From assembly GCA_036382775.1 (NCBI GenBank), contig DASVHD010000036.1, positions 18,657 through 82,656 on the forward strand: a DNA stretch of 64,000 nucleotides, written 5' to 3'. Shown here piece by piece: positions 2,102-53,240 of the stretch. Numbering within the stretch: position 1 is the first letter of the stretch; the number at the start of each line of letters is the position of its first letter. The notes below the pieces were generated by a model. It saw only the letters and a program-made list of their open reading frames with translations, did no database searches and was not told the DNA's origin. The translations under genes were made by a program, and so were the position numbers. This DNA comes from a bacterium (GTDB lineage Bacteria > Hydrothermota > Tepidihabitantia > SM23-42 > JAOAFX01).

Positions 2102-2204
2102 AATAATCACATGCATCCGGTGTCGGGACTATCCAGTCTTAAAACCAGGGATCAACCTTTCAAGTATTGACATTGCTTGAATTTTCGATATAATTCGCCA
2201 GGTT

Positions 2205-9489: not shown

Positions 9490-11496
9490 TCATTGCTTTT
9501 CGCGGTGGGCGAAATTGACCCTGTTGCCCCCCATCTGTTTTGCTTCGTAGCATGCCTGGTCAGCCAGATGTATCAACATCACGCTGTCTTTGCCGTCGAG
9601 AGGGAACGTGGAAATGCCGATGCTGAGAGTAACAGGAGGGTCGATGTCCTGGGCTAAGATCTTACCCCGCATGCGGTCTGCTGCCTCGAGCGCAAAAGTC
9701 GCCTCGGTCTCGGGTAGGATCGCCACGAATTCATCGCCTCCGTACCGGCACAGGAAGTCAACATCCCTGATCGATTCCTTCATTATCTGGCTGAGCTTGA
9801 TCAGGATCTTATCCCCGGCCAGGTGTCCGTACGCGTCGTTATAGGATTTAAAATTGTCAAAGTCAATCATCAGCACGGCGAAGGGCCGGCGGTACCGCTC
9901 GGCGCGTTTGATCTCAGCATCGATCAGGACCTCGAAGTTACGGCGGTTTGGCAGGGTGGTCAGGGGATCGGTCAGCGACAGCCTTCTTGCTTCTTCATAC
10001 AGCCGCGAGTTCTCGAGCGCGATCGCGATCTGCGCGCTGAGCGTGGAAAGCAGGTTGATGTCATCCTGGGTAAAACCGTCGAATACCGGGCTTTCGACAT
10101 CGAGCACGCCGACCAGCCGTTCGCCGATCATCAGCGGTAAGCAGACCTCGCTCTTCGCTTCCTTGACCCCCACGACATAATGCGGCTCCTTGGTCACATC
10201 CGGGGCGTAATGCATCTGCCGTGTCGCGGCCACATGCCCGGTGACCCCGACTTCGCCGATCTTGATCTTCATGTTCTTTACCGCTTCGGGATAGTTGATG
10301 TATGACCTCAGCTTAAGTTCCTGGTTCTCCTCATCGACCAGGAAGACCGCCAGGTTCAAATATCCGAAAAGATTGACCAGCCGTCGCAAGATATTGTTAA
10401 GCAGCTGGTCAAAATCCAGCGTGGAAATAAAGCTCTGCCCCACTTCATACAAGATCGCCATGTCCATGGCTTCACGGCTGATGCGCCGGTACAGGGAAGT
10501 GTTGTCGAGCGCGATCGCGGCCTGGCTGCAAAGCATGGAAAGATAATCGACCTCGTTGCGCGAGAATTCATGACGCTGGGTCGACTCCACGTACAGTATC
10601 CCGATTAGTTTCTCGCGGGCGATCAGCGGAAAGCCCGCGATCGACGCCCGCTGCTTCATGATCGATACGGGATTGGCGATATCATGTTCTTTGATATCGT
10701 TCATGATGACCGGCCGGCGCGTCCGGATCAACTCGCCGGACATGCCCTCGGAAAGCCGCGTCGGCGACACGTACTGCTGGTGCGTGAACTTGCCGTTGGC
10801 ATATTCAAATGCATCGGTGATTTTTTTGCTCATCTCATCGACCAGGATCAGAGTGCCGCTGTCGACCCTGGTGATGGCGACCGCGGTGGACAAGAACACT
10901 TCCACGATCTTTTCGACCTCAAATGATGACGTCAGCAGGATGCCGATCTCCTCAAGACCCGTGACGATCTGGCTTTTCTCTTCGGTCTCGCCCAGCAATT
11001 TGATGTGCTCGATCGCCAGGGCCGACAGCTTCGTGAAAAAATCAAGGCTTTCCTCATCCTGGAATTTTTCCTGCGGCGTGCGATAGTAGATGTTCAGACA
11101 TCCGATCGCCTCGCTCTTTAATATCAGCGGCGCGCAGACCAGCGACACCAGCCCCTCTTTCTCGATCCAGTCGACGGTGAAGTGATTTCCAATATTCTCA
11201 AATATCGACATAACATTGGGTACGAACCTAAATTTTTTCTTCTGGCATACGACCCCGGCGATCTCTTCGTCCTTGCGCACGCGCACGGCCTTAAGGTACT
11301 CGGGCGACAGATTGAAGGAACGAGCGATCGTCAGGTATTCGCGGTTTGAATCGAAGAGCATGATCGAAGACGCGGAGGCATTGAAGAACGAACAGGACGT
11401 CCTGGTGATCGTGTCCAGGACGCTGTCCAGCGTCTTGTTCTCAAGCAGCGCTTCGGCGATTTCGGCAAAACTTTTTGACCATTCGTGTGCGAACAT
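9490..11496 (-). CDS. Sensor diguanylate cyclase with multiple GAF domains and a GGDEF domain
   Basis: The C-terminal region 'PLTTLPNRRNFE...RYGGDEFVAILPET' is a GGDEF domain. Several GAF-like blocks lie upstream of it. Confidence 0.9.
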   Translation of the reverse strand: MFAHEWSKSFAEIAEALLENKTLDSVLDTITRTSCSFFNASASSIMLFDSNREYLTIARSFNLSPEYLKAVRVRKDEEIAGVVCQKKKFRFVPNVMSIFENIGNHFTVDWIEKEGLVSLVCAPLILKSEAIGCLNIYYRTPQEKFQDEESLDFFTKLSALAIEHIKLLGETEEKSQIVTGLEEIGILLTSSFEVEKIVEVFLSTAVAITRVDSGTLILVDEMSKKITDAFEYANGKFTHQQYVSPTRLSEGMSGELIRTRRPVIMNDIKEHDIANPVSIMKQRASIAGFPLIAREKLIGILYVESTQRHEFSRNEVDYLSMLCSQAAIALDNTSLYRRISREAMDMAILYEVGQSFISTLDFDQLLNNILRRLVNLFGYLNLAVFLVDEENQELKLRSYINYPEAVKNMKIKIGEVGVTGHVAATRQMHYAPDVTKEPHYVVGVKEAKSEVCLPLMIGERLVGVLDVESPVFDGFTQDDINLLSTLSAQIAIALENSRLYEEARRLSLTDPLTTLPNRRNFEVLIDAEIKRAERYRRPFAVLMIDFDNFKSYNDAYGHLAGDKILIKLSQIMKESIRDVDFLCRYGGDEFVAILPETEATFALEAADRMRGKILAQDIDPPVTLSIGISTFPLDGKDSVMLIHLADQACYEAKQMGGNRVNFAHREKQ

Positions 11497-37848: not shown

Positions 37849-37876
37849 TTGACATTTTTGCGCGATTGCATATAAT
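37849..37876 (+). promoter_or_regulatory. Consensus sigma70 promoter for tRNA-Gly
   Basis: TTGACA lies at 37849-54, a 16-nt spacer follows, and TATAAT lies at 37871-76. The mature tRNA 5' end is 12 nt downstream. Confidence 0.6.
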
Positions 37877-37887
37877 ATAAGTTATTC

Positions 37888-37959
37888 GCGGGAGTAGCTC
37901 AGTGGTGGAGCATCACCTTGCCAAGGTGAGGGTCGCGGGTTCAAATCCCGTCTCCCGCT
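37888..37959 (+). tRNA. tRNA-Gly with anticodon GCC
   Basis: A hand-folded cloverleaf is consistent. The acceptor stem GCGGGAG pairs with CTCCCGC. The D-arm is GCTC/GAGC and the anticodon stem TCACC/GGTGA. The anticodon loop TTGCCAA carries anticodon GCC. The T-arm is GCGGG-TTCAAAT-CCCGT. The molecule is 72 nt and has no encoded CCA. Confidence 0.9.
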
Positions 37960-39826: not shown

Positions 39827-41116
39827 ATGTTCGATCTATTCGCATCCGGACTTAAACTGAAAAGCCAAAAGATAACAAGCGGTCAGGCGATCGAAGTCAT
39901 GCCCCCGCCAAAAAAAGTTCATATCCCATTTTCCCAGCACCAGGGCAACCCAGCCCGGCCTGTCGTCAGCATCGGCGATCATGTCAAAGCCGGCACCGTG
40001 ATCGCAGAGGCCGAAGGGTTTGTATCGGTACCAGTGCATGCCAGCATTTCCGGCACGGTCACCGCCGTTCAAAGGCACCCCCATCCGGTCCTGGGACATA
40101 GCCTGGCCTGCACCGTGGAAGCGGATGAAAGCGATGAATGGAAAAATCCTGCGCAGACTCATCAATCCTATGAAAACCTTCCAGTCCCGGAACTGCTCAA
40201 GAAGATAAAAGGAGCCGGTGTGGTCGGCCTGGGCGGCGGTGCCTTCCCGACCCATGTAAAACTTGCGCCCCCCGATGACATCAAGATCGACACGCTGCTT
40301 ATCAACGGCTGTGAATGCGAACCCATGCTTACCGCAGATTACCGCCTTATGCTGGAATACCCGGTGGGCATCGTGGAGGGCGCGAAAATATTCCAGAAAA
40401 TACTGGGGACACCGAAACTTGTCTTTGTGCTCGAAAACAACAAAACCGGCGCTGCCCACGCCCTGGAAAAAGAAGGGGCGGTAGTGCGCATCATAAGAGC
40501 ACGCTACCCGGCTGGTCATGAAAAACAACTCATCAAGAGCGTTCTAAGGCGCACCGTGCCTCTCGAGAAATTACCCTGGCACGCCGGTTGTGTCGTTCAG
40601 AATATCGCGACCTGCCATGCCGCGTTCCAGGCGATCCGTTTCGGCAAACCGCTGATCGAGCGGGTAATAACGGTCTCGGGCGAAGGGGTCAGAGAACCGA
40701 AGAACATCATGGTGCGCATCGGGACACCGCTCGAAGATATCATAAACTTCTGCGGCGGCTATGCGGCGAAACCGCGGAAAATAATTTTCGGCGGACCGAT
40801 GATGGGTATCGCCCAGTTCGCTCCTGACGTGCCGGTCATCAAGTGCACGACCGGCATAATCGTAAAATTACGGGAACGTTCTGAACCGGAAACCTCCTGC
40901 GTCCGGTGCGCGCGGTGCGTCGATGTCTGCCCGATGAAACTCATGCCCTGCGAAATGGTCAAATATGTCAAACACAACGAATTCAACAAGGCCGATGATC
41001 TCGGTACGCGCGCCTGCATTGAATGCGGCTGCTGCGCTTATGTCTGCCCGGCTAAGATACCGCTCGTCCATTACTTCAAATACGGCAAGACCGAGATCCA
41101 GAGAATAAGGTCATGA
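39827..41116 (+). CDS. rnfC: Rnf electron-transport complex subunit C
   Basis: An NADH-binding region 'GAGVVGLGGGAFPTHVKL' is followed by two 4Fe-4S motifs, 'CVRCARCVDVCP' and 'CIECGCCAYVCP'. Confidence 0.9.
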   Translation: MFDLFASGLKLKSQKITSGQAIEVMPPPKKVHIPFSQHQGNPARPVVSIGDHVKAGTVIAEAEGFVSVPVHASISGTVTAVQRHPHPVLGHSLACTVEADESDEWKNPAQTHQSYENLPVPELLKKIKGAGVVGLGGGAFPTHVKLAPPDDIKIDTLLINGCECEPMLTADYRLMLEYPVGIVEGAKIFQKILGTPKLVFVLENNKTGAAHALEKEGAVVRIIRARYPAGHEKQLIKSVLRRTVPLEKLPWHAGCVVQNIATCHAAFQAIRFGKPLIERVITVSGEGVREPKNIMVRIGTPLEDIINFCGGYAAKPRKIIFGGPMMGIAQFAPDVPVIKCTTGIIVKLRERSEPETSCVRCARCVDVCPMKLMPCEMVKYVKHNEFNKADDLGTRACIECGCCAYVCPAKIPLVHYFKYGKTEIQRIRS

Positions 41117-42201
41117 AACAAACTAAGGACCAGGGCCCTGGAACGAGTCGGTCCCGGTCTGGGGACCGGGAAAACGATCTGCTGACTGTATCAGCATCGC
41201 CACACATGCGCGCGCCCTACAGCACGCGCCGGGCAATGCAGCTGGTGATCATTGCGCTGGTTCCCGTCTTTGCGGCCAGTGTGTTTTTCTTCGGTTACAA
41301 AGCCCTGCTGGTCACGCTGGTAAGCGTCGCGTCGTGCATCGGCTGGGAAGTGCTTAGCCAGCGAGTCATGAACCGGCCGGTCACGGTTTCTGATGGCAGC
41401 GCGGTCATCACCGGCATGCTGCTGGCATTTAACCTGCCGCCAGGCGTGCCGTTATGGATACCCGTTGCCGGCTCCTTTTTCGCGATCGTCGTCGTGAAGC
41501 AGCTGTTCGGCGGACTGGGCAGCAATTTTGTGAATCCAGCCTTAGCTGGACGGGTGTTCCTCATGGCATCCTGGCCTGCCCTGATGACAACCGGGTGGCT
41601 GGCGCCGGCTTATGGTACGGTATCGGGCATGGACGCGGTCACCGCCGCGACGCCGCTGTCGCTGATGAAAAATGCCGCGCTGTACGGCGATCCGAGCTAT
41701 ATTATCCAGGGCCTTAATTCATGGTCCACCCTGCGGCACCTTTTCCTTGGTTCGGTGGGCGGTTGCACCGGCGAAACATCGGCGCTTGTGCTCATTATAA
41801 CAGGCTTGTTCCTTGTCATAGTCCGATTGACCGATTTCCGGATTGTCACCGGCTATCTTGCAACTTTTATCGTTCTCGTCCTTGTTCTGCCGGTCCACGG
41901 GAACCTTTGGTTCCAACTTTTTTCCGGAGGACTGCTCCTGGGTGCTTTCTTCATGGCAACCGACTGGGTAACAACGCCCGTGACCAAAACCGGACGCTGG
42001 ATATTCGGGATCGGCTGCGGCATTTTTACGGTCTTGATCCGTTTGTGGGGCAGTTATCCGGAAGGCGTATCCTACGCCATTCTACTCATGAATATCTGCA
42101 CGCCGCTGATTAACCAGCTGACCGGGGAAAGGATCTTCGGCACACCGGCGCGCATACCGTTCTGGACGCGTCATATTAGATCAGTGGAGGTAAAAAAATG
42201 A
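41113..42201 (+). CDS. rnfD: Rnf complex subunit D
   Basis: The protein is a polytopic NqrB/RnfD-family membrane protein with the conserved 'SPHMRAPYSTRR' N-terminus. Confidence 0.9.
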   Translation: MKQTKDQGPGTSRSRSGDRENDLLTVSASPHMRAPYSTRRAMQLVIIALVPVFAASVFFFGYKALLVTLVSVASCIGWEVLSQRVMNRPVTVSDGSAVITGMLLAFNLPPGVPLWIPVAGSFFAIVVVKQLFGGLGSNFVNPALAGRVFLMASWPALMTTGWLAPAYGTVSGMDAVTAATPLSLMKNAALYGDPSYIIQGLNSWSTLRHLFLGSVGGCTGETSALVLIITGLFLVIVRLTDFRIVTGYLATFIVLVLVLPVHGNLWFQLFSGGLLLGAFFMATDWVTTPVTKTGRWIFGIGCGIFTVLIRLWGSYPEGVSYAILLMNICTPLINQLTGERIFGTPARIPFWTRHIRSVEVKK

Positions 42202-43109
42202 AACTAAGTGGAAAAGTGATACCGCTGATCATGCTGGCTGCGGTCATTTGCCTTAGCATTTTTGTACTATCATTCGTCTATGCCTTTACCGAAGCGCCGG
42301 CCGATACAGCAGCCAACAGGATCGCTTTCGCTGACCTTCACCGGGTAATCGACGCTTACGATTTTGTATCGATCAGACCCGATACGGTATGGCAAGCCGT
42401 GGATTCGACAAAAAATCCGGTCGGGATCGTATTTCGCCTTTTTCCCAAGGGCTATGCAGGGAAGATCCCGGTCACGGCCGGCATCGATCTCGCAGGGATC
42501 ATCACCGGGATCACGATCGCCGGTCAGGGAGAGATCCTCAAGGAAACACGCGGTCTGGGCAGCCGCATCCTTGAACCATGGTTCGCAGAGCAGTTCAAGG
42601 GCAAATCCGAATACCAGGTTAAGCTCAAAAAAGACGGCGGGGACATCGACGCGATAACCGGCGCCACTGTTTCCTCGCGGGCGGTCTGCAATGGTATCAA
42701 CAAAGGCACCGCCGCGTTTAAGTGTTTTCTCGCTGACACGACAAAGAAAGGTTTCATCAGCAAGGTGCTCCCGGATGCCGGACAGACGATCGATATTATC
42801 AAGGACACCGCGTGGTACGCCCTGCGGGGCTGCGATACCCTGGGCATCGCGTTTGTCGGGTTCTGCTTCGGATACCTGGACACGATCTCGTTCCTGGTCG
42901 GCGTGGGCAGGGACTCGAATATCACGGGTATCGAGATCCAGCAGTCACAGGAAACCGAGGGAATGGGTGAGCTGATCAGAGAGAGCGAGTTCCTCGATAA
43001 GTTCAAGCAGGGAAAACCCGAAGCCATTACCGGCGCGACGATCTCTTCAAGCGCCGTGATCAAGGCTGTCGATGAAGCGATGAAGCGCTTCATAGTTTAT
43101 ATCAAGTGA
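42198..43109 (+). CDS. rnfG: Rnf complex subunit G with a tandem-duplicated FMN-binding domain
   Basis: There are two FMN_bind units, 'ETRGLG...DAITGATVSSRAV' and 'ETEGMG...EAITGATISSSAV'. The 303 aa length compares with about 200 aa for a typical RnfG. Confidence 0.8.
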   Translation: MKLSGKVIPLIMLAAVICLSIFVLSFVYAFTEAPADTAANRIAFADLHRVIDAYDFVSIRPDTVWQAVDSTKNPVGIVFRLFPKGYAGKIPVTAGIDLAGIITGITIAGQGEILKETRGLGSRILEPWFAEQFKGKSEYQVKLKKDGGDIDAITGATVSSRAVCNGINKGTAAFKCFLADTTKKGFISKVLPDAGQTIDIIKDTAWYALRGCDTLGIAFVGFCFGYLDTISFLVGVGRDSNITGIEIQQSQETEGMGELIRESEFLDKFKQGKPEAITGATISSSAVIKAVDEAMKRFIVYIK

Positions 43110-43720
43110 AACAACCCGCGCTTATCCCGTTTTCAGCCGCTGACACAAAAGAAAATCCCTCAATGTGCTGGCTCCTGGGTCTGTGTCCGGTCCTTGCAGT
43201 CACAACTTCGACCATAAACAGCATCGCGATCAGCGCTGTTTTTTTCATCGTTCTTGTCATGACGAAACTGGCCATGGCGGTGACCAGGAAATGGACTGAT
43301 CCCGGTGCCGGCATCACTGTTTTTCTGCTCCTGATCATAAGTTCAACACTGACCGCGACCGCAGATATGGGCACAAAGACATTTTTCCCCGATTTGCACA
43401 TCTCACTGGGTATATACCTGTCATTGATCGCCGTTAATTGTATGATCATTTCGCGACCGAATAAAAGGACCATTACTGACGCTTTAAAAACCGGCCTGGG
43501 TTATGTAGTGATCATTGTGATCATAGGAATCGCGCGGGAAGTGCTGGGCAAGGGCACCCTGCTCGGTGATACAATACTGGGAAGCGGTTTCCGGGCATCA
43601 CCCGTATCATTCTTTATTCTGCCGTCGGGCGCTTTCCTGGTCATGGCATTTATAATTGCCTTTATCAATTCACACCACGGACAGCGCAAACTACAAGAAC
43701 AAAACCGTGGTAAAACATAA
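43106..43720 (+). CDS. rnfE: Rnf complex subunit E
   Basis: The N-terminus 'CWLLGLCPVLAVTTSTINSIAISAVFF' is of the NqrD/RnfE family. Confidence 0.85.
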   Translation: MKQPALIPFSAADTKENPSMCWLLGLCPVLAVTTSTINSIAISAVFFIVLVMTKLAMAVTRKWTDPGAGITVFLLLIISSTLTATADMGTKTFFPDLHISLGIYLSLIAVNCMIISRPNKRTITDALKTGLGYVVIIVIIGIAREVLGKGTLLGDTILGSGFRASPVSFFILPSGAFLVMAFIIAFINSHHGQRKLQEQNRGKT

Positions 43721-43732
43721 AGAATAGACTGT

Positions 43733-44329
43733 ATGCAGGCGGCCATGAAGTACGCATGGTTCATCATCATAGGGTCGGTCTTTGTCAACAACCTGATCCT
43801 GGTGCGGTTCTTGGGGATATGCACGCTTTTCTGTCCCGGCGCGAAGCTGAAAGAATTCCTCAAGATCAGCATAACGCTCATGGCGGTCATGATCGCCTCA
43901 TCATGGCTCGGCTGGATTGCCTACTACGGGATCCTGAAACCCTTGAACCTGATTTTTCTTAAACTCCCCGTGTTCGTGCTGCTTACCGCCGTTTTGGTGC
44001 AAGCAGCGGTCTTTTTCTTTAGGAAAAAAATGCCGGGTCTGCACGTGTTACTGGGTGGTTATCTGCTTTTATTCACAGCTCATTGCGCGGTACTGGGGAT
44101 AATATTACTGGCTATTGAACAAAACCTGGATTTCCTGCAGACCACAGCATTCACCCTGGGCAGCGGTCTGGGCGGACTCCTGGTCATGCTGGTGTTCTCT
44201 GCGATCAGGGAAAGTGTCAAATTCGCACCGGTTCCGCGCGCGTTCAAGGGCTACGCTATCGACTTTGTTGCCTTAAGCCTTATGTCTCTGGCGTTTTTGG
44301 GGTTTATCGGCTTTCTGGGAATATTTTAA
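43733..44329 (+). CDS. rnfA: Rnf complex subunit A
   Basis: The N-terminus 'IIGSVFVNNLILVRFLGICTLF' is of the NqrE/RnfA family. Confidence 0.85.
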   Translation: MQAAMKYAWFIIIGSVFVNNLILVRFLGICTLFCPGAKLKEFLKISITLMAVMIASSWLGWIAYYGILKPLNLIFLKLPVFVLLTAVLVQAAVFFFRKKMPGLHVLLGGYLLLFTAHCAVLGIILLAIEQNLDFLQTTAFTLGSGLGGLLVMLVFSAIRESVKFAPVPRAFKGYAIDFVALSLMSLAFLGFIGFLGIF

Positions 44330-44583: not shown

Positions 44584-45078
44584 TTATTTACCCGGCCCGT
44601 GCTTTGACGGCGGGACCGTCTTTTTGGGTTCGGCTTTCCGCGTTTTACTGTCCTTGTCCTCGTCTTTGTTATCATCCTTATCATTATCTTTATCTTTATT
44701 ATTATCCCGTCTGAACAGGTCCTTGAACTTTGACTCCAGCTGCTTTATCCTGTCAAAATCCTTTTCCCGCTGGTCATTGACGTTGTTCGAATCGATGTCG
44801 ATGATCTTGTCGCCGTTCTTGTCCGTGATGTTCTTTATCTTGCCCTTGAGGTCGAATTTCACTTCCTTGCCTTTTTCATCTGCATCATTCTTGTTATTGT
44901 CATCCTTACCCTTGCCTTCTTTGATAATATCTCCATCCTTGTTGGCCTCTTCGTTCTTTACCACGGTTTTTGTATTACCGTCGTCTTTAATGTTTCTGGC
45001 CGACTTGGGCACCGGCTGGACCGCAAAGGACAAACTCAGCAAAAGCAGTAATGTCAGGAGTAATATTTTTATCTTCAT
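44584..45078 (-). CDS. Secreted Lys/Asp/Asn-rich low-complexity protein
   Basis: AAGGAG precedes the ATG at 45078. The signal peptide is 'MKIKILLLTLLLLLSLSFA', and the remainder is roughly 40% K/D/N/E. Confidence 0.55.
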   Translation of the reverse strand: MKIKILLLTLLLLLSLSFAVQPVPKSARNIKDDGNTKTVVKNEEANKDGDIIKEGKGKDDNNKNDADEKGKEVKFDLKGKIKNITDKNGDKIIDIDSNNVNDQREKDFDRIKQLESKFKDLFRRDNNKDKDNDKDDNKDEDKDSKTRKAEPKKTVPPSKHGPGK

Positions 45079-45136
45079 GGTCGCTCCTTGAATTATAAGG
45101 AAATTACATGCCTTGTCAACCGTTCGCGCGGACATG

Positions 45137-45826
45137 TCATTCCTCCCAAAGTTTCACGAACACGCGCCGGTGTTCACCCGGCTCAAGATAGATCCTGCGC
45201 GTGAGGGTCCGGTACCATGTCTTCCTGATCCTCACGACGTACTCTCCGGGTTTCAGTTCGATCGTGTACGGCGCCTTGCCGACGTATTCCTCATCACCGG
45301 TCCCGACGTTTTCAATGTAGATGCGGCATTTCTTGGGGTTCGAGACGATCCGCAGCAGGACCGGCTCCGGTTCTCTGATATTCAGTTCCAAAGACCGCCT
45401 GACCACATCGTCTGTAACCGCCTCATCGCTTTCATATTCCGGCACGTCTTTTGTCGACACCAGCAGGACGATCGTCTCAGTGCCTCCTGGACCGTTGACT
45501 TCGTACTCGAAATTGTCGTCCGGCGATGGCAGCTCGTAGACTCGGCCGGCTTTGACCCATCCTTCTTCTTCATCGTCTGCCGACGGGAACAGCCGACTGC
45601 GCTCGCCCGAAACCTCGATGTCGTAGACCGCCACATAGCAGTCGTACGGAACCCTGAAATAGATCTTGAGCTTGTCGCCGGTCTGGTACGTCAGGTCACC
45701 ATTGTTTACCCAGAGCTCGATGCCGTCGCTGCTGGAAAGGGTCGCGGGAGACCCGCCCGCACCGGACGGGTCTCCTGCAGGGTTTAGGGAGGCGATCAAG
45801 CTAAGGACCAGCAATATTGCGTTCAT
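45137..45826 (-). CDS. Secreted protein with a DUF4384-like domain and a C-terminal PEGA-like domain
   Basis: A signal peptide is present. The DUF4384 pattern is 'GDKLKIYFRVPYDCYVAVYDIEVSGERSRLFP'. The PEGA-like region is 'PKKCRIYIENVGTGDEEYVGKAPYTIELKPGEYVVRI'. Confidence 0.55.
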   Translation of the reverse strand: MNAILLVLSLIASLNPAGDPSGAGGSPATLSSSDGIELWVNNGDLTYQTGDKLKIYFRVPYDCYVAVYDIEVSGERSRLFPSADDEEEGWVKAGRVYELPSPDDNFEYEVNGPGGTETIVLLVSTKDVPEYESDEAVTDDVVRRSLELNIREPEPVLLRIVSNPKKCRIYIENVGTGDEEYVGKAPYTIELKPGEYVVRIRKTWYRTLTRRIYLEPGEHRRVFVKLWEE

Positions 45827-45828
45827 TG

Positions 45829-46878
45829 TTATCTCCGCGCTCCCGGGGATGGTCTTGCCGAGCGTTCCCGGGAAGAATTATCCGTATTGCCGCCACCGTT
45901 ACCGCCTTTGTCGGGTATCGAGCTCCTGTTGTTGCGCGCCTTGCTGTTGTCATTCTCTTTTTCTCGATCGCTGTTGTTATTGTCATTCCGTTCGTATGAA
46001 TCATCCCGTTCCGGCTTGCGATTATCAGGCTTGTCATACTCTTCCTGATCCTGGTCGCCCTGGTCGTTCTTGTTCTGGTCCTCGTCTTCGTAATACTCGC
46101 TCCAGTCGCGCTTTTCCACGTTCGGATTCTTCGACTTGTCATTATTACCGTTATCATTGTTATATTTGCGGCCTTCCAGGTTCTTCGTCGTATTGGTCTC
46201 CTTATCAATGACCCGGTCGCTGCGCTCGTCGGCGAAGTTCTTTTCCTCAAGGTTAACCTTGCTCTTGCTGAGCTGGTATTCCTCGTTCTTGACCTCGATC
46301 TCTTTGCGCTGTTTGACTTCGTAATCCTTGCGCATCTTTTCAAGGTTGCCGCTCTTTTCCTCTTTTTGCAGCCGCTTGTACAGATCAGGGTCTTTCTCTT
46401 TTGTCAAACGCATCACTTCCTTCTCGTTGTAGGGTACGTCGATCTGACGCGGCGGCTTGTCCGGCAGGCTAATACCGTACTCGTGCGCCTTGTACTTGAA
46501 GTCGTTGTACGAATAATGCAGCTCGTACCTGACGTATCGGCCGTAACGCGGCCGCCAGTAGCAGTGTCCGCCTTCATACCACACGATGTAGTAGCCGGCA
46601 CCGAAGAAATGCCAGTCCCAATTATGGCACCAATGGCAGCGGTACCAGTACCAGTCCCACCACCACGGGTGATACCACACGTAGTAGACGCAATAGTACC
46701 CGTGCGGGTAATACGCCCAGTAGTGGTCGTAGTGATGGTAGTACGGATCGTCTTGCCAGTACTCGTCGTACCAGTAATCATCACCATATTCATCTCCGTC
46801 ATAATGCGCGTAGGCGAAGTTCAGGCCAAACACACCAAAAGATATGGCTGCTAGGCCCAACAAAATGATGTTCTTCAT
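45829..46878 (-). CDS. Secreted protein with an extreme Trp/Tyr/His/Cys-rich domain and a long Lys/Glu/Asp/Asn-rich tail
   Basis: AAGGAGG lies 7 nt before the ATG. The signal peptide is 'MKNIILLGLAAISFGVFGLNFAYA'. Residues about 25-135 are dominated by W, Y and H with 4 Cys. The remaining roughly 215 aa are charged and disordered. Confidence 0.55.
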   Translation of the reverse strand: MKNIILLGLAAISFGVFGLNFAYAHYDGDEYGDDYWYDEYWQDDPYYHHYDHYWAYYPHGYYCVYYVWYHPWWWDWYWYRCHWCHNWDWHFFGAGYYIVWYEGGHCYWRPRYGRYVRYELHYSYNDFKYKAHEYGISLPDKPPRQIDVPYNEKEVMRLTKEKDPDLYKRLQKEEKSGNLEKMRKDYEVKQRKEIEVKNEEYQLSKSKVNLEEKNFADERSDRVIDKETNTTKNLEGRKYNNDNGNNDKSKNPNVEKRDWSEYYEDEDQNKNDQGDQDQEEYDKPDNRKPERDDSYERNDNNNSDREKENDNSKARNNRSSIPDKGGNGGGNTDNSSRERSARPSPGARR

Positions 46879-46894
46879 GGCATCCTCCTTTATG

Positions 46895-47674
46895 TTAATG
46901 CCCAATGACCAACTCTGGATTGCCGGGATCGATCTGGTATGCCCAGTCAAACACCATGTGCTCTGGTCCGACTTCGGTCACGCGGAGTTTGGCAAAATGA
47001 TTGTCCCAGGTCCAGAAAACGTAAGTATGCCCCTCAACCGCCTCAACCACACCAGACGGCGACCAACCCTGGTCTGGAGCATACGTGATATCATCCATTG
47101 ATTCTGTATATCCCATGTCCTGGATCAAACCGCCGCTCTTGTATACAAGCAGGTACGGGATATCGCTCGGCGAATCATAATCATAATAAATATCGCTCTG
47201 CGAATAATTCCAGGACACGATCTCGTATTCGCTGAAATCCCAGCCGGCATAAACCGGATATTCATCGACATCGTACAGCCTTATATTATACCCCTCAGGC
47301 CTCGGCGTATCGAAAACCAGCTCGTATGAAAGATCGCTCTCGTTCCCGTTTTCGTCGAAAGCCGTGATCGCGTAAAAATACGTAAGGCCGTTTTCCAATC
47401 CGTAATCAAGGAAGTAATCAAAGTTCGTTTCGCCGATCAAATAGTACGGGCCTTCCGGATCATAACTCCGGTATATTCGGTACGCTTCAAGGTCAGGTTC
47501 GTTATTCGCATACCAGTAAAGCATGACTTCTTCATCACCAGTCACCGAGGTTAATCCCCTGGGTATGGCTGGTGGTTCATTATCAGCTTCCTCATAGCAG
47601 CAAGGAGCATATATAAGGGCTCCTGCTATCAGTATCATTTTCAGAGAATTTGTTATTTTTTTAATGTTTTTCAT
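46895..47674 (-). CDS. Secreted or lipid-anchored protein containing a fibronectin-III domain
   Basis: The signal peptide is 'LIAGALIYAPCC'. The FN3 pattern is 'LTSVTGDEEVMLYWYANNEPDLEAYRIYRS...YFYAITAFDENGNES'. Confidence 0.6.
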   Translation of the reverse strand: MKNIKKITNSLKMILIAGALIYAPCCYEEADNEPPAIPRGLTSVTGDEEVMLYWYANNEPDLEAYRIYRSYDPEGPYYLIGETNFDYFLDYGLENGLTYFYAITAFDENGNESDLSYELVFDTPRPEGYNIRLYDVDEYPVYAGWDFSEYEIVSWNYSQSDIYYDYDSPSDIPYLLVYKSGGLIQDMGYTESMDDITYAPDQGWSPSGVVEAVEGHTYVFWTWDNHFAKLRVTEVGPEHMVFDWAYQIDPGNPELVIGH

Positions 47675-47859
47675 GGTCAGCTCCTGCCTTATTTATATGC
47701 AAGGGCCATGCCAACTAAAAGCATTGAAAAACAATCACTTTTTTGATACCGTCGCACAAAAAAAGTGCAGTTTGCACAAAAGACGTGATAGACACGACTT
47801 ACATCCATATGGAATATTTCCTCAGGTCCATTGTATAATATAGCATAAAGGAGGCTACA

Positions 47860-48885
47860 ATGAAAAAGGTTCTGCTTTTAGTCTTGATACTAGCTGCATC
47901 AGTATTTTCCAAAGAAGATACGGCACCGATCGAGAAATACATTGATAAGATCAGCGTCGGCGATCCCATTGAATACAAGAATCTGAAAATATTCCCTTTG
48001 AACGTGCTTTCCGCGCTTAGCACCATGGACTATGTTACGCTTGACCAGGCCATGGATAAAGGCTGGTTAAAAATAAAGGAAAGCGGCGAAGGCGAAGTGA
48101 ACACGGTCATGGTTAAGAATAATGGCGACGCGCCGGTCTTTTTACTCACTGGCGAGATGATAACCGGTGCCAAGCAGGACCGGATGCTCGAAAAAGACCT
48201 GCTCCTGCCATCGAACAGTGGCTGGGTGGAAGTTCCCGTATACTGCGTGGAACATGGCCGCTGGGTATCGGTCTCCTCTGAATTCAAGTCTGGCGGTTAT
48301 GTGGTGCCCAACGCGGTGCGTCAGGCGGCCAAGATTAACCCCAGCCAGTCAGAAGTGTGGGACAAAGTGGCCGAGAACCAGGAACAACTGGGTGTCGCTT
48401 CGGGGACAGGTACTGCCCGCGATACTTATGAGGACTCGGATGTCCAGAAACGATTGGACGATTATGAGGTTAATCTCGGCAAAGTCCCGAAACTTTCAAG
48501 CACCACGATCGGAGTGGTCGTAACGACCGGCGACCGGATAATCTGCTTCGACCTGTTTGCCAACAACGGTCTGCTCAAGAAACTCTGGAAAAAACTGGTC
48601 AAGTCCTATGCCATGGACGCGCTGACCGGCGAGAAGAGCACGCTGACCAAATCCGATATCAGGGAATTGCTCGAGGTCTTCGAGGACGCTCGGTTTGTCT
48701 CGACCGGGACAGCCGGTTTGGGCGATCTTTTTACGATCGAGTCGACGGTCGGTAAGGGTTCAGCCCTGACCTATGGTAAAGCCGTGGTTCACATGGACTT
48801 CTTCCCCAGTGAAGACCTCCCGACCGATGATGAAGGTGATGGACTGCGCCTTGATTTCAGACGGGATCAGAGGAACGACGACTAG
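47860..48885 (+). CDS. Secreted hypothetical protein, possibly DUF6569/ARPP-1-like, but I could not confirm that
   Basis: AAGGAGG precedes the ATG, and a signal peptide is present. The protein is 341 aa and transcribed divergently from the low-complexity operon. Confidence 0.55.
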   Translation: MKKVLLLVLILAASVFSKEDTAPIEKYIDKISVGDPIEYKNLKIFPLNVLSALSTMDYVTLDQAMDKGWLKIKESGEGEVNTVMVKNNGDAPVFLLTGEMITGAKQDRMLEKDLLLPSNSGWVEVPVYCVEHGRWVSVSSEFKSGGYVVPNAVRQAAKINPSQSEVWDKVAENQEQLGVASGTGTARDTYEDSDVQKRLDDYEVNLGKVPKLSSTTIGVVVTTGDRIICFDLFANNGLLKKLWKKLVKSYAMDALTGEKSTLTKSDIRELLEVFEDARFVSTGTAGLGDLFTIESTVGKGSALTYGKAVVHMDFFPSEDLPTDDEGDGLRLDFRRDQRNDD

Positions 48886-48978: not shown

Positions 48979-51381
48979 TTACTTTACCAAAACCGCCTTT
49001 TGCGTCACGCTCTTGCCATCAGATTTAGACTCCAACCGGTAAAAATACACGCCCGGACTTACCTCTCTTCCCTTTCCATCCCTGCCATCCCACGTGACCG
49101 TCTGCCAGCCGGTTCTTTGCGCAGATCCCTGCCAGAGGATCGCGACCAGACTTCCGCTGGCGTTGTAGATTTTCAGTGCGTAGTCTTTATCAATGGCTGG
49201 CAAGCTGAATCTCACGCGGTGGCTGCCAATCCGTACCGGATTCGGGAAGAAGCTTCCAAGATCGAACCGCGCGGTATGCACTGGACTGCTGCTTTCCTCA
49301 ATACCTGGCTCGGGTTCGAACGCACCGGTCAGCACCACGGCAAAAGGCTGGCGCGCGGTCACCACATTTGCCGCCATGATCCTGATCTGCCATAAGCCTG
49401 TCCTGGGGACATTTATCCGGAAACATTCGTAGGGATTGAGGCTATCATAGCGCGCCGTGGGATTGATAATAGACTGACCGCCTGTATACACGCTGCCTTT
49501 GAACGAATCTCCGTAAGCGTTGACCATCCTGACGTCCAGATTGTTGATCAATACGCGCGCGGCGCCGGCTGCGGCCGCGGTGTCGGTCCAGCAGACAACA
49601 GCCCTTAACGGTACGGTTGAATCATCGACATTGAACTGGTATTCCGCAAATTGCCCAGTGGCAAGGCCGGTCGTGTCATCATCCAGCAGCAATTCCCTTT
49701 TTTCGGGCGTCGGCAAGGCAAAATAAAGAACGGAATCGAGATCGATCCGGCCCCAGCCGATATATTCGCTGGGCACGACATATGCCCCGACATTCGGATC
49801 GCAGGATACGATGATCATCGCCTTGAGCAGGGCACCGCTGACATAATCCATGCTGTCTGCCGGATCGAGCGTGCCGCTCGGATACCAGCCTTTTCTCAGG
49901 TATTCGCGGATCAGACCGATGCAGCCGTTGCACGAAGGCGCCGCCATTGACGTGCCGCTCATGCTGGTGTACGAGTTAGTCGTGCCTTCCATGGCTGAAT
50001 AGACATTACTCCCGATCGTCGAACAATCCGGTTTCACCCTGCCATCGGGTCCGGGGCCGCGGCTTGAATAAGTAGCCAGGGTTGTGGCGCTCGTACCGTT
50101 GCCCAGCGCGGCCATGGCGATGACCGATTTCGCGTTGCCGGGCTCGGTGATCCGGTACTGCGATGACTGACCCTGGTTGCCGCATGATTTTATCAGCACC
50201 ACATCCTTGTTTCTCCAGCAGAACATGTCAAACTCCATTGATTTCGCCGAATATACGCCCATGGTTCCGGTCCACCAGGAGTTGGAGATAGTGTGCGTGC
50301 GCAGCTGAGGATTGCGAAGGGTATTGGTAAGCATGTCCAGGATAGTAATGTAATTATAAGACGAACTCGGGATCGGGCTCAGGTGCGAAATACGCGCTTT
50401 CTTGGAATGGCCATCCCGCACGTCTGTGCCGCCCATGGCTGAATCATTGCCCACGGTCGTGCCGCCCACATGAGTGCCATGACCGTCAGGATCACCCACG
50501 CCGCTGGCCGGCGGATAATGTTTGAACACCACGACTTTTTGATGGGTCGGGAATTCACCCGTGTCCGTAATGGAAAATGCCGGATCGCCGAATGCCCAGT
50601 GATTAACATCAAGTCCAGTGTCAGTGTATCCCAGGATCTCGTCGGTGCCGAAAATCCCCTGGCGCCAGATCGACCGGGTCGTATCATTCGGCGGCAACCC
50701 CTTCTGGTTCACCCATTGCGCAAGATCGTTCTCCGGTGCCGAGGGAAACCACTCCTCGATCCAGCAAACCGAGGGCAAACGCGTCATTTCTGGCAGCTGC
50801 GACCGTAGGCAGCTCACAAAGAAAAATTTTATTTCCGCGGTATTGGATAGATCAAGGATCTTGACCTTAAGCGCTTCCAGGGCTCCGCGCGTATCATTAA
50901 CGCTTTCAGTATGGAAAATATAGACCAGGAATCTTGATTCCCGGCTGCCATTCAGGATGTTTTTGTATAATTTAAAGGCCGGCTGATAGATCCCGCTCCA
51001 GCGCACCATAGATAACTTATCGACCTCGGCCCTCACCCTGTCGTTCATCTTCACGATGAACATATTCTGCGAATGGCATCCGAGTAAGACCGCTCCGGTA
51101 TTATGAAGTTGGTCGATCATGCTTGCATATATTGGACCGCGCAATTGGACGAGATAATATCCATCGCCGTCGCCCGGGTATTTGTCGCATTTCAGGTCAA
51201 GGTCATCGGGTAGAATTGGCTGCGATACGAGCGGATCAAAAGTATGATCAGTGATCCTGATAACCGCCGCGTCACCGGCAGGTTCAGGTACGTAATATCC
51301 CCTGGCCGAAGGCTGGAACGGGTTGTTAAGTGCGAACACCCACATTCCCGCAATCAGGGTTAACAACGCGATATTTTTCAT
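48979..51381 (-). CDS. S8 subtilisin-family serine peptidase with a T9SS C-terminal sorting domain
   Basis: The catalytic triad motifs 'DTGLD', 'HGTHVGGT' and 'GTSMAAP' are present. The CTD reads 'GVYFYRLESKSDGKSVTQKAVLVK'. AGGGAGG precedes the ATG at 51381, and the signal peptide is 'MKNIALLTLIAG'. Confidence 0.9.
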   Translation of the reverse strand: MKNIALLTLIAGMWVFALNNPFQPSARGYYVPEPAGDAAVIRITDHTFDPLVSQPILPDDLDLKCDKYPGDGDGYYLVQLRGPIYASMIDQLHNTGAVLLGCHSQNMFIVKMNDRVRAEVDKLSMVRWSGIYQPAFKLYKNILNGSRESRFLVYIFHTESVNDTRGALEALKVKILDLSNTAEIKFFFVSCLRSQLPEMTRLPSVCWIEEWFPSAPENDLAQWVNQKGLPPNDTTRSIWRQGIFGTDEILGYTDTGLDVNHWAFGDPAFSITDTGEFPTHQKVVVFKHYPPASGVGDPDGHGTHVGGTTVGNDSAMGGTDVRDGHSKKARISHLSPIPSSSYNYITILDMLTNTLRNPQLRTHTISNSWWTGTMGVYSAKSMEFDMFCWRNKDVVLIKSCGNQGQSSQYRITEPGNAKSVIAMAALGNGTSATTLATYSSRGPGPDGRVKPDCSTIGSNVYSAMEGTTNSYTSMSGTSMAAPSCNGCIGLIREYLRKGWYPSGTLDPADSMDYVSGALLKAMIIVSCDPNVGAYVVPSEYIGWGRIDLDSVLYFALPTPEKRELLLDDDTTGLATGQFAEYQFNVDDSTVPLRAVVCWTDTAAAAGAARVLINNLDVRMVNAYGDSFKGSVYTGGQSIINPTARYDSLNPYECFRINVPRTGLWQIRIMAANVVTARQPFAVVLTGAFEPEPGIEESSSPVHTARFDLGSFFPNPVRIGSHRVRFSLPAIDKDYALKIYNASGSLVAILWQGSAQRTGWQTVTWDGRDGKGREVSPGVYFYRLESKSDGKSVTQKAVLVK

Positions 51382-51584: not shown

Positions 51585-53240
51585 CTACCTTTCCCCCTCT
51601 TCGATCTCGGTTATGCACTGGAGGATCTCCAGTTCATCGGCGTCGAACCAGATCAGACCACATGTCCAGCATTCATCGATCTCAACGTGGTGCGCGTAGC
51701 TGTAGAACTTATGCACCATTGGTTTGCCGCATTTCGGGCAGTTGCGCGGTTGAGCCGTGGCGATGCGGAGCTCGCATTTGTAACCGTGCTCTTTCGACTG
51801 TTTCCTGATGACGTCGGCCAGGTGCTGAACCCTTTTTGAGAAACCTTTTTCCTTGCGCGTGATTATGCGGGGGATCTTGTCGCGCTCGACCAGAATGCCC
51901 CGGCAGAACGCGCATTCTGACACGTACATCCCTTCGTATGGCAGTACGATCAGCCATTGCCGGCACAGCGGGCACAGCCGCCTGATCTTCCACATCGGTT
52001 CTTTTCTGACTTCAAAGAAAAAAGTGAGTGCCGGGACCTCCACGGCGGCGATTACCTCGGTGCTGCCGTCCACGCGTAGCCTGGTCTCAGGGATGAGCCA
52101 ATCCAAGCCCATAAGCTGGAGCATTGAGAACGGCCCGTACCATTCGTCATTTTTCTCGGCATAGAATACGGGACCGGTCTCTGGTATGTCGGCCTCGGTC
52201 TTGACCGTGATCTTTTTCTGGATCTGTTCGGTCAGCTGACTTATCTCGCCATGGCCCAGGTCAAGCAGGACTTGGAGCCGCTTGGTGAAAGGCGGGTGCG
52301 TGGAAAAAAGGGTCGGCCAGAAACCTTCGGATTCTTCCATAAGGTTGTGCTCAGGGCTCATGATGAAGATCGCGGACAGCCGGTCGCCGCTGTAACCGGC
52401 GCCGCGCCAGCGCAGGGCGATCTTGTACAGCGCGCTCGCCAGGCTCATCGGATCGCGGCTCAGCCTTGCTGCCGCGGCATCAGCCCGGTATTCCTTTTCC
52501 CTGGAAATGAACATGTTAAGCAGCGAACCAAAACACTCGAAAACGAACAGCGCCAGCAGAACGGGCATGGATGCCGCCACTGCGGAACTCGCCCGGCGCT
52601 GATTTTGCTCTCCGCGGTCAAAGGACGCTAATTGTGGAGCCCGTGCCAGCGCTTCTTCGTATACGTTAAACAGCGAGCAGACGATAGTCGTCAGGAGACA
52701 GTCGCCGGAGACGATGTGCGCCATTTCGTGCGCCACCACGGACTGCAGTTCTTCGCGCTTGAGCCGCGAGATCAAACCTTCGGTCACGCCGATGACCATA
52801 CGGCCGCTCAGGTCGGCCAGGGCGAAAGCGTTCATCGCGCCGGTCGGGATGACATACCTTTCGACCTGCAGGCCGCCGGCGGCCGCTTGCAGTTCATCGA
52901 CCACGTTTTCGAAGACGTGATGGTAATTATCGTGTTTGTCCGGATGCCTGACGCCAAGACAACCCAGGATCTTGTCGACCACGATCTTGTTGGAGTGATA
53001 CCAGTGGAACCACGTGACAATTAGCGCGACCAGCATGACAATAACCGTATCCCAGTCGAACAGGCTGAACTTCATGGCCTGCCACGTGAGGAAGAGTCGG
53101 TTGGAGAGCACAAGTTTAACGATCAGCCAGGCGACCCAGATGAATATAAAATGGATTAAAAGCAAAAAGGAAAAAACGGCGTAGATCCGCCACGTTTTTT
53201 CCTTTTCAATGTCCCAGAATGTCTTGATCGTTTCAGCCAT
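51585..53240 (-). CDS. M48-family (HtpX-like) membrane zinc metallopeptidase with a C-terminal GYF-like domain and multiple CxxC zinc ribbons
   Basis: M48 motifs 'HEMAHIV', 'EYRAD' and 'STHPP' are present. The C-terminal extension carries 'CPLCRQ', 'CAFCRG', 'CPKCGK' and 'CWTCG' plus 'NDEWYGPFSMLQL'. Confidence 0.75.
   Translation of the reverse strand: MAETIKTFWDIEKEKTWRIYAVFSFLLLIHFIFIWVAWLIVKLVLSNRLFLTWQAMKFSLFDWDTVIVMLVALIVTWFHWYHSNKIVVDKILGCLGVRHPDKHDNYHHVFENVVDELQAAAGGLQVERYVIPTGAMNAFALADLSGRMVIGVTEGLISRLKREELQSVVAHEMAHIVSGDCLLTTIVCSLFNVYEEALARAPQLASFDRGEQNQRRASSAVAASMPVLLALFVFECFGSLLNMFISREKEYRADAAAARLSRDPMSLASALYKIALRWRGAGYSGDRLSAIFIMSPEHNLMEESEGFWPTLFSTHPPFTKRLQVLLDLGHGEISQLTEQIQKKITVKTEADIPETGPVFYAEKNDEWYGPFSMLQLMGLDWLIPETRLRVDGSTEVIAAVEVPALTFFFEVRKEPMWKIRRLCPLCRQWLIVLPYEGMYVSECAFCRGILVERDKIPRIITRKEKGFSKRVQHLADVIRKQSKEHGYKCELRIATAQPRNCPKCGKPMVHKFYSYAHHVEIDECWTCGLIWFDADELEILQCITEIEEGER

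Follow-up and report, generated by a model that had tools for sequence, protein, structure and literature searches.

A conserved set of four genes for exported cell-envelope proteins with a predicted sigma-54 promoter in WOR-3-type bacteria

Four consecutive genes, here called g1 to g4, occupy positions 47674 to 44584 on the minus strand of a 64,000-nucleotide stretch of contig DASVHD010000036.1 (GenBank assembly GCA_036382775.1), which is referred to below as the window. We find that g1-g4 are a conserved set of exported envelope proteins that has been undescribed so far, while the matrix or adhesion system suggested in a sequence-only reading of the same DNA is not proven. What is new here is a predicted sigma-54 promoter with an enhancer site before g1 and a separate, predicted sigma-70 promoter before g4. 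The set uses known yet uncharacterised domains (FN3, DUF4384, and PEGA), to which WOR-3 bacteria add an orphan, extremely aromatic family. Our favoured reading, to which we give about an even chance, is that the products form an inducible, lipoprotein-anchored assembly in the cell envelope. We found no characterised system that matches g1-g4 and no literature on the gene set.

The gene set and its conservation

The first gene, g1 (47674..46895, minus strand), encodes 259 residues and follows the Shine-Dalgarno (SD) sequence AGGAG. The 349-residue g2 (46878..45829, minus strand) begins at an ATG behind AAGGAGG, the 229-residue g3 (45826..45137, minus strand) has the SD sequence GGAGA, and the 164-residue g4 (45078..44584, minus strand) begins at an ATG behind the SD sequence AAGGAG. 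By the list of open reading frames (ORFs) and the sequence itself, the gaps g1/g2, g2/g3, and g3/g4 are 16, 2, and 58 nucleotides, so that the four consecutive minus-strand genes are spaced by 60 nucleotides or less, as had been read. Canonical SD sites had been assigned to three of the genes; these are present, but SD-like sites occur at all four. The gene calls for g1-g4 agree with those on identical public contigs (a 131-kb contig from ENA and a 42-kb contig from JGI). A 373-residue ORF for g2 that starts at a TTG was considered and rejected as an over-extension, with the ATG after AAGGAGG preferred.

The ratio of nonsynonymous to synonymous substitution rates (dN/dS) was computed against the relative locus L090, which has 67-90% amino-acid identity. 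It is 0.09 for g1, 0.165 for g2, 0.20 for g3, and 0.18 for g4, as expected under purifying selection. Because the ratio is low in all four, the substitution patterns indicate that g1-g4 are all genuine coding genes, including their disordered parts. Plus-strand ORFs that lie over the operon (e.g. 44624..45091 and 45113..45787) are most likely mirror-frame artefacts, as it is the minus-strand frames that are conserved and under purifying selection. An origin of the disordered tails from tandem DNA repeats was also rejected, with only trivial repeats found.

A genome collection was scanned with a g1 profile, which confirmed relatives in 361 stretches, and the best 80 of these 361 were examined as loci. 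The order g1-(x)-g2-g3-g4, in which x is an additional small gene, is kept in complete WOR-3 genomes and long scaffolds (CP070664, CP070834, CP070802, and CP070795 are complete genomes with the operon), and the four-gene order is found in 17 of 17 WOR-3-, Stahlbacteria-, or TA06-type loci that have enough sequence. A lack of synteny in related genomes had been named as the observation that would count against a dedicated gene set; instead, the order is conserved despite differing flanks, and the claim of a dedicated, co-inherited, exported set is borne out. Gene x (85-100 residues) is located between g1 and g2 in L005 (5697-5999), L006 (5698-5985), L013, L015, and L017. It has no Pfam match, and the product is probably cytoplasmic, since a signal peptide is missing. 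In 10 of 14 distinct WOR-3 loci, a gene for an LEA_2 lipoprotein lies upstream on the same strand. Both gene x and the LEA_2 gene were looked for elsewhere in the window, and neither is present.

A signal peptide had been assigned to each of the four proteins. This holds for g1, which has an export signal of the lipoprotein type, and for g2 and g4, which have classical signal peptides; the N-terminus of g3 is short, uncharged, and hydrophobic, and canonical signals are seen in longer g3 homologues. No C-terminal sorting domain of the type IX secretion system (T9SS; TIGR04183, PF18962, or PF13585) was found on g1-g4 with Pfam and NCBIfam at E ≤ 0.1, and we therefore ruled out the four proteins as T9SS cargo. 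Since this domain is missing, the default site for the proteins in a diderm cell would be the periplasm or a membrane anchor. A gene for Lnt, the apolipoprotein N-acyltransferase, is found in the window (13038-11530, minus strand), which fits with a lipoprotein pathway of the diderm type.

Promoters and candidate activators

A promoter element of the sigma-54, -24/-12 type, TGGCATGGCCCTTGCA, is located at 47713..47698 (minus strand), 23 nucleotides upstream of the g1 ATG. It was discovered by alignment of the g1 leaders of the window, L090, and L010. The pattern TGGCAY-N5-TTGCW has a single match on both strands of the 64 kb, and this match is the element before g1. All 16 of the 16 WOR-3-type loci have the -24/-12 element 20-23 nucleotides before g1, and overall it precedes g1 in 31 of 88 loci, across phyla, compared with a background of 0.017 per kb. 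By its GG and GC dinucleotides, their spacing, and the distance to the start codon, the element is a predicted sigma-54-dependent promoter. Within 260 nucleotides upstream of g1, no WOR-3 locus has a sigma-70-like site that matches at 10 or more of 12 positions. No Rfam element was found in the leader, and the only one in the whole window is a tRNA.

Further upstream, at 47778..47754 (minus strand), the sequence TTTTGTGCAAACTGCACTTTTTTTGTGCGAC contains a TGTGC-N5-GCAC palindrome and a third TGTGC half-site, and is a candidate enhancer (upstream activating sequence) for a sigma-54 activator. The palindrome is conserved across the g1 leaders of the window, L090, and L010, and TGTGC-N5-GCAC has its sole site in the window here. 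All 16 WOR-3-type loci have, 65-105 nucleotides upstream of the -24 element, a GCACA-N5-TGTGC palindrome together with an extra TGTGC. We take this palindrome to resemble the sites of NtrC-type activators. A hairpin at 47777..47765, which might be mistaken for a terminator, was re-read as the conserved activator palindrome.

In 10 loci from Zixibacteria, Ignavibacteria, Hydrothermota, and Eisenbacteria, genes for sigma-54 activators are located directly upstream of g1. The activators are of the types REC-AAA+-HTH_8 or TPR-GAF-AAA+-HTH_8. Activator genes beside g1 homologues are found at 4359-5702 in L034, 4286-5713 in L041, 4436-5839 in L051, 121-855 in L025, 2155-5235 in L036, and 2045-5221 in L078.

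The last gene has a predicted promoter of its own. A sigma-70 consensus sequence, TTGACA-16-TATAAT, is found at 45119..45092 (minus strand), 13 nucleotides upstream of the g4 ATG. Of the 16 WOR-3-type loci, 15 have the full consensus (12 of 12 positions) and the remaining one, L014, has 11 of 12; the -35 box often overlaps the g3 stop codon. Thus, the description of the genes as a single operon stands as far as the four adjoining genes are concerned, but must be modified to include two predicted promoters, sigma-54 before g1 and sigma-70 before g4. A longer g4 that starts at an ATG at 45135 was rejected, because the apparent conservation of FLIIKG is the in-frame reading of conserved -10 and SD DNA, and the upstream ATG is out of frame or missing in several g4 relatives.

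The four proteins and their relatives

The g1 protein consists of an FN3 domain (residues about 34-129) and a second conserved β-sandwich (about 130-259). Although no Pfam family, fn3 included, matches g1 at E ≤ 0.1, the FN3 region (34-129) matches an FN3-like structure from Clostridium, PDB 3mpc, with E = 6.6e-6 by sequence and 4.5e-10 by profile. The AlphaFold2 (AF2) model of g1 has a mean predicted local distance difference test score (pLDDT) of 92, and in Foldseek it superimposes on 3mpc with a template-modelling score of 0.80 and a root-mean-square deviation of 1.7 Å over 92 columns. By sequence and predicted fold, then, g1 has an FN3 domain, as was claimed for the first gene. Cys-25 is invariant in 54 homologues, in an alignment with 42 invariant columns. 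The lipobox is Y-A-P-C in the g1 of the window and L-A-G-C, F-A-S-C, or L-T-G-C among relatives; since the invariant Cys-25 closes it, g1 is a predicted bacterial lipoprotein. The C-terminal domain contains the invariant polar residues D161, D186, H216, Y218, D224, H226, K229, R231, and E254, and residues 130-259 have no sequence relative in the PDB. The g1 family has 1319 proteins, with confirmed relatives in at least 361 species genomes. Beyond WOR-3, it ranges over Hydrothermota, Zixibacteria, Eisenbacteria, KSB1, Ignavibacteria, and Melioribacter.

Besides its signal peptide, g2 contains a conserved W/Y/H-rich domain, in which a C-x2-C-H motif is found, as well as two to three helices and a charged disordered tail of about 150 residues. 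Residues 25-150 contain 30 Tyr, 14 Trp, and 12 His among 126 residues (44%), and thus the W/Y/H-rich protein with a charged tail is just as it had been described. An alignment of 83 family members has 21 invariant and 46 near-invariant columns, and the AF2 model has pLDDT 83-97 for residues 65-220. Within g2, the core has a dN/dS of 0.075 and the tail one of 0.205; the tails have a median length of 134 residues, with 43% charged and 84% disorder-promoting residues, and are unconserved in sequence. Cys-63, Cys-81, Trp-83, and His-85 are 95-100% conserved (C81 98%, W83 100%, and H85 95% of the 83 members). Cys-84 is kept in 77%, with His in its place in 12 of 83 and Val in 6 of 83. A complete CxxCH motif is found in 61 of the 83 members, and in the window it is C81-H-W-C84-H85. 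When g2 is considered as a c-type cytochrome, it has CxxCH in an exported protein and no match to a cytochrome family or fold; neither cytochrome c maturation genes nor other CxxCH-rich proteins were noticed in the 64-kb window. At the other end of the protein, a C-terminal Arg is present in 73 of 83 members, mostly as [KR]R or GR (45829-45834 in the window), and may be a processing or recognition signal.

No relative of g2 outside its family was found in the databases searched. The protein of the window has no Pfam match (E ≤ 10), the 83 family members match no Pfam family, and NCBIfam gives no match. There is no profile relative in the PDB, the best Foldseek hit there has E = 1.1 and is no fold match, and BFVD likewise gives no fold match with Foldseek. 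When 1.84 billion representative proteins were searched exhaustively with a g2 profile, there were 19 matches, all of them family members or fragments, and remote homologues were accordingly rejected. The members that bear names are from candidate division WOR-3. UniRef names on two members suggested DUF6600, DUF3300, or DUF5667, but no Pfam match at E ≤ 0.01 was found among the 83 proteins and hhalign was negative, with a probability of 0.3% for g2 against a DUF6600 protein. In L028, a 348-residue protein between g1 and the DUF4384-PEGA gene has 50% W+Y in a 60-residue segment and is missed by the g2 profile.

By Pfam, g3 is a DUF4384 and PEGA protein, as had been read, with both scores above the gathering cut-offs: 74.8 bits against 27 for DUF4384 (PF14326; E = 5.8e-21) and 44.5 bits against 20.8 for PEGA (PF08308; E = 1.4e-11). 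The description of g4 as a K/D/N-rich protein of 164 residues is also correct, with 34 Lys, 26 Asp, and 16 Asn. Its signal peptide is accompanied by a (Q/P)VP(K/R) motif and a loop that reads F-x-D-x-D-S-N-x-V-N-D-x-R-E-x-D-F-x-x-I-K, both of them conserved. Homology searches find g4 homologues in WOR-3 only, and the loop motif recurs in the small proteins encoded at the corresponding place of the operon in WOR-3, Zixibacteria, Hydrothermota, and Ignavibacteria. The loop consensus among relatives is D-x-[DN]-x-[DN]-G-[VIL]-[ND]-D. The loop in the window is D-I-D-S-N-N, and homologues have D-N-D-S-N-G, D-K-N-S-D-G (L020), or D-K-D-K-D-G (L024). A 284-residue g4-like protein in L028 (8870-9724) has about 7 tandem D-x-[DN]-x-D-G-x-[ND]-D units. 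The term "low-complexity", applied to all four proteins in the sequence-only reading, is not refuted for g4, but does not suit g1, g3, or the first 200 residues of g2, which are conserved folded domains.

Outside WOR-3, the place after g1 is taken by other proteins. In 40 of 89 loci, the gene next after g1 encodes a DUF4384 protein, and such pairs span WOR-3, Zixibacteria, Eisenbacteria, KSB1, Hydrothermus, and Ignavibacteria. About 34 loci then have a gene for a small g4-like protein. The non-WOR-3 DUF4384 protein after g1 is long (330-630 residues): its DUF4384 domain is combined with an aromatic region rich in Cys and with a long charged tail. The aromatic region often reads YPRY-x-C-Y-D-C-H, and CxxCH is found in 13 of 24 long DUF4384 proteins, versus 61 of 83 g2 proteins. 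In Hydrothermota, the slot is occupied by a FecR-DUF6600 protein (DUF6600, PF20245; E = 3.7e-27) with a KPERP-repeat tail. In 36 of 46 loci, W+Y make up at least 25% of some 60-residue segment of the protein behind g1; the 99th percentile of the background is 0.25.

These proteins resemble those of WOR-3 in more than position: like the WOR-3 set, the long DUF4384 and FecR-DUF6600 proteins combine a β-sandwich domain with a segment rich in W/Y and a long tail that is charged and disordered, in the slot directly after the g1 lipoprotein gene, and a small protein that has a Dx[DN]xDG-like loop comes behind them. The difference is that WOR-3 divides the parts between g2 (aromatic region and tail) and g3 (DUF4384 and PEGA). 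Moreover, g2 has no detectable homology to DUF6600 and resembles the long DUF4384 proteins at the motif level only. The long DUF4384 and FecR-DUF6600 proteins are all uncharacterised; the literature yielded 7 papers on DUF4384 and none on DUF6600.

Two neighbouring genes had been mentioned with the set. The divergent secreted protein (47860-48885, plus strand), which was called hypothetical, is indeed secreted and divergent from g1, but belongs to the ARPP-1 family (PF20208; Pfam E = 2e-75). It has dN/dS 0.04, showing strong purifying selection, and is divergent from g1 only in the sub-lineage of the window, L090, and L010; the intergenic region between them houses the palindrome described above. 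The ARPP-1 neighbour raised the idea of a defence-system or phage origin, which was rejected, as PADLOC and PHROGs gave 0 families for g1-g4 and this neighbour. The S8 protease (51381..48979, minus strand) has a T9SS tail, as claimed, with 26.7 bits against a cut-off of 23, but its gene is on the upstream side of the operon, past the divergent gene, rather than just downstream. Its longest ORF starts at a GTG at 51618 (879 residues); this form is probably an over-extension, because the signal peptide, MKNIALLTLIAG..., begins at the ATG at 51381. Since the protease is missing from the close relative L090 and ARPP-1 is confined to the sub-lineage of the window, comparison of the loci places both genes outside the set. 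On the other side, an Rnf-type operon (39827-44329, plus strand) runs towards the 3' end of g4. It encodes RnfC, RnfD, an RnfG-like FMN_bind protein, and two subunits of the Rnf-Nqr type, and this neighbourhood is not kept in other WOR-3 genomes.

The promoter before g4 is one of 7 perfect TTGACA-N16-18-TATAAT sites in the window, where 0.02 are expected. The others are at 2167-2194 (plus strand), 11533-11506 (minus strand; before a GGDEF/GAF gene that starts at 11496), 15482-15455 (minus strand; before glnA), 18486-18458 (minus strand; before an ORF that starts at 18444), 37849-37876 (plus strand; 11 nucleotides before the tRNA gene at 37888), and 55952-55925 (minus strand). The glnA gene, for glutamine synthetase, is located at 15447-14086 (minus strand). 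The excess over expectation, and the site before a tRNA gene, indicate that TTGACA/TATAAT is a working promoter type in this lineage. Several of the sites (those before glnA, the GGDEF/GAF gene, the ORF at 18444, and g4) end 7-15 nucleotides before the start codon, so close that very short or near-leaderless transcripts would be expected in the lineage.

A possible lipoprotein-anchored envelope assembly

In the mechanism that we propose, a sigma-54 activator (enhancer-binding protein) would bind the upstream palindrome and turn on g1-g2-g3, while g4 would also be expressed independently, probably at a higher level. The g1 protein would be lipid anchored, with its FN3 domain and C-terminal β-sandwich as a membrane-proximal platform on which g3, the DUF4384-PEGA β-sandwich protein, and the aromatic-rich g2 assemble. 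The helices and long polyampholyte tail of g2, together with the small polybasic g4, would then form a hydrated, ion-bridged layer, to which the calcium-loop-like motif of g4 may contribute. This layer would sit in the periplasm or on the membrane surface, as a structural or binding assembly and not an enzyme pathway. The non-enzymatic character is suggested because no catalytic family was found for g1-g4 in Pfam, NCBIfam, PADLOC, or PHROGs, and the domains are β-sandwiches, helices, and disordered tails. One long protein, with DUF4384, an aromatic region rich in Cys, and a charged tail, may combine the roles of g2 and g3 in other phyla; this equivalence is proposed because of the same operon slot, the W+Y richness, and the CxxCH motif in both.

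We take the sigma-54-dependent envelope operons with enhancer-binding proteins, e.g. zraP-zraSR or psp of E. coli, to be the nearest regulatory parallel. Like these, g1-g4 have a predicted -24/-12 promoter, with a candidate palindromic activator site upstream, and encode exported envelope products, and in the g1 loci of other phyla a gene for an NtrC-type response regulator lies beside the target operon. The likeness does not extend to the proteins, as g1-g4 have no sequence or fold relationship to ZraP or Psp, and here there are four different proteins, including a lipoprotein, with the last gene having its own predicted sigma-70 promoter. According to Francke et al. (2011, PMC3162934), the bacterial exterior is the common theme of sigma-54 regulons, which an inducible envelope module would fit.

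Several observations weigh against this assembly. The model is a prediction that rests on gene order and domain types. Neither rpoN nor a sigma-54 activator gene was found in the window or in the WOR-3 loci. With 13 nucleotides between the -10 box and the ATG, a g4 transcript made from its own promoter would largely lose the SD sequence. The invariant His and Asp residues in the C-terminal domain of g1 could mark an unrecognised catalytic or metal site. For the proposed equivalence with the long DUF4384 proteins, hhalign aligns g2 with their aromatic region over 22 columns, with E = 0.004 and a probability of 8%, which is weak, and the exhaustive g2 profile search gave no relatives outside the g2 family. 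We have therefore rejected g2 as a demonstrated split-off piece of these proteins, on a motif alignment of 22 columns only, and keep the relationship as an inference. Finally, about 35 loci of Ignavibacteria and Melioribacter have g1 without a DUF4384 neighbour; in these, pyrimidine-synthesis genes flank g1 on one side, and on the other are a gene for a DUF4783 protein and then one for a large histidine kinase.

The extracellular matrix, coat, or adhesion module of the sequence-only reading would place the proteins beyond the outer membrane and use Tyr/Trp/Lys-rich chemistry for sticking or cross-linking. We regard this as unlikely, although it has some points in its favour. The Y/K/D-rich composition recalls Tyr-rich coat and adhesive proteins, and biofilm and surface traits are often under sigma-54 control. 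Furthermore, PEGA and FN3 are reported as domains typical of the cell surface (Adindla et al. 2004, PMC2447325). Exit from the cell is the difficulty, since g2, g3, and g4 have no recognisable outer-membrane export signal, and TIGR04183 and PF18962 match the S8 protease only; this neighbour has the T9SS C-terminal domain that g1-g4 lack, and it is not conserved. For g1, the acidic residues after the lipidated Cys (C-C-Y-E-E-A-D) loosely resemble the export signal of Bacteroidetes lipoproteins, which is K-(D/E)2 or S-D-D-D-D at +2 to +6 (PMC5080379), but the stretch does not follow the defined position rule and varies among homologues (E-G, E-K). The surface-exposed lipoproteins of Bacteroidota (Lauber et al. 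2016, PMC5080379) are from the same superphylum and likewise have Ig/FN3-like domains and acidic residues near the lipidated Cys. In g1, however, these residues are off +3 to +5, the preceding K/Q/S is inconsistent, and there is no SusC/TonB-dependent partner. The module also has no adhesin-type repeats. Thus, the matrix or coat module is not supported.

A periplasmic stress system that binds metal or haem, by analogy with the sigma-54/ZraR-controlled ZraP, strikes us as a rather doubtful alternative. Here, g2 would bind metal or c-type haem through C81-x2-C84-H85 and nearby His, Tyr, and Asp residues, and g4 would bind Ca2+. The near-invariant C81, W83, and H85, the replacement of C84 mostly by His, also a metal ligand, and an N-terminus rich in acidic, Tyr, and His residues are consistent with such a role, as are the CxxCH motifs with variable inner residues (CYDCH, CVGCH, CASCH, CYQCH, CRDCH) of the long DUF4384 proteins and the NtrC-type response-regulator activators that adjoin g1. 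But the second Cys is missing in 22 of 83 g2 proteins, including those of two complete genomes, which is atypical for haem c attachment, and the Zixibacteria and Ignavibacteria versions have no CxxCH; nor does g2 match any cytochrome or metal-binding family or fold, and the maturation genes and other CxxCH-rich proteins mentioned above were not noticed in the window. The g4 family has loops of the Dx[DN]xDG calcium-binding type (Rigden et al. 2011, PMC3123361), with the strict forms DKNSDG (L020) and DKDKDG (L024) and the tandem copies in L028. The g4 of the window departs from the strict form, with N at position 5 and N for G at position 6, and has a single loop in an otherwise disordered polybasic protein. 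It is less probable still that the K/D/E/N-rich tails of g2 and g4 are envelope hydrophilins, that is, LEA-type protectants against desiccation, osmotic, or thermal stress, with the folded domains as anchors only. The LEA_2 gene upstream in many WOR-3 loci, the charged and disorder-promoting composition of the tails, and their purifying selection (dN/dS 0.18-0.21) would agree with this. Against it, the window has no such gene, LEA_2 is a domain that is itself folded and is uncharacterised in bacteria, g2 and g4 match no LEA family, and the highest conservation is in the folded domains, not the tails.

Beyond the favoured reading of an inducible, lipoprotein-anchored envelope assembly, a bolder proposal, which we hold to be a long shot, is that g1-g4 represent, in WOR-3, an envelope structure induced through sigma-54 that is widespread, though so far undescribed, among candidate phyla related to the Fibrobacteres-Chlorobi-Bacteroidetes (FCB) group. 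The aromatic CxxCH proteins, i.e. g2 and the mid-regions of the long DUF4384 proteins, would then be a new extracytoplasmic class, binding metal or haem or interacting with minerals or polymers, with a fold absent from the PDB.

WOR-3, Zixibacteria, Eisenbacteria, Hydrothermota, and KSB1 are mostly uncultured, and their envelopes are essentially unstudied. In these bacteria, four "hypothetical proteins" become a defined module, with a predicted lipoprotein anchor, a DUF4384 partner, an orphan aromatic family, and a predicted sigma-54 circuit, and DUF4384 and PEGA gain a reproducible genomic context. The predicted promoter and regulators give experimenters a handle, with cultured Ignavibacteria as possible test organisms. 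Should the CxxCH-aromatic domain prove to bind haem or metal, a new cofactor-binding fold outside the cytoplasm would have been found.

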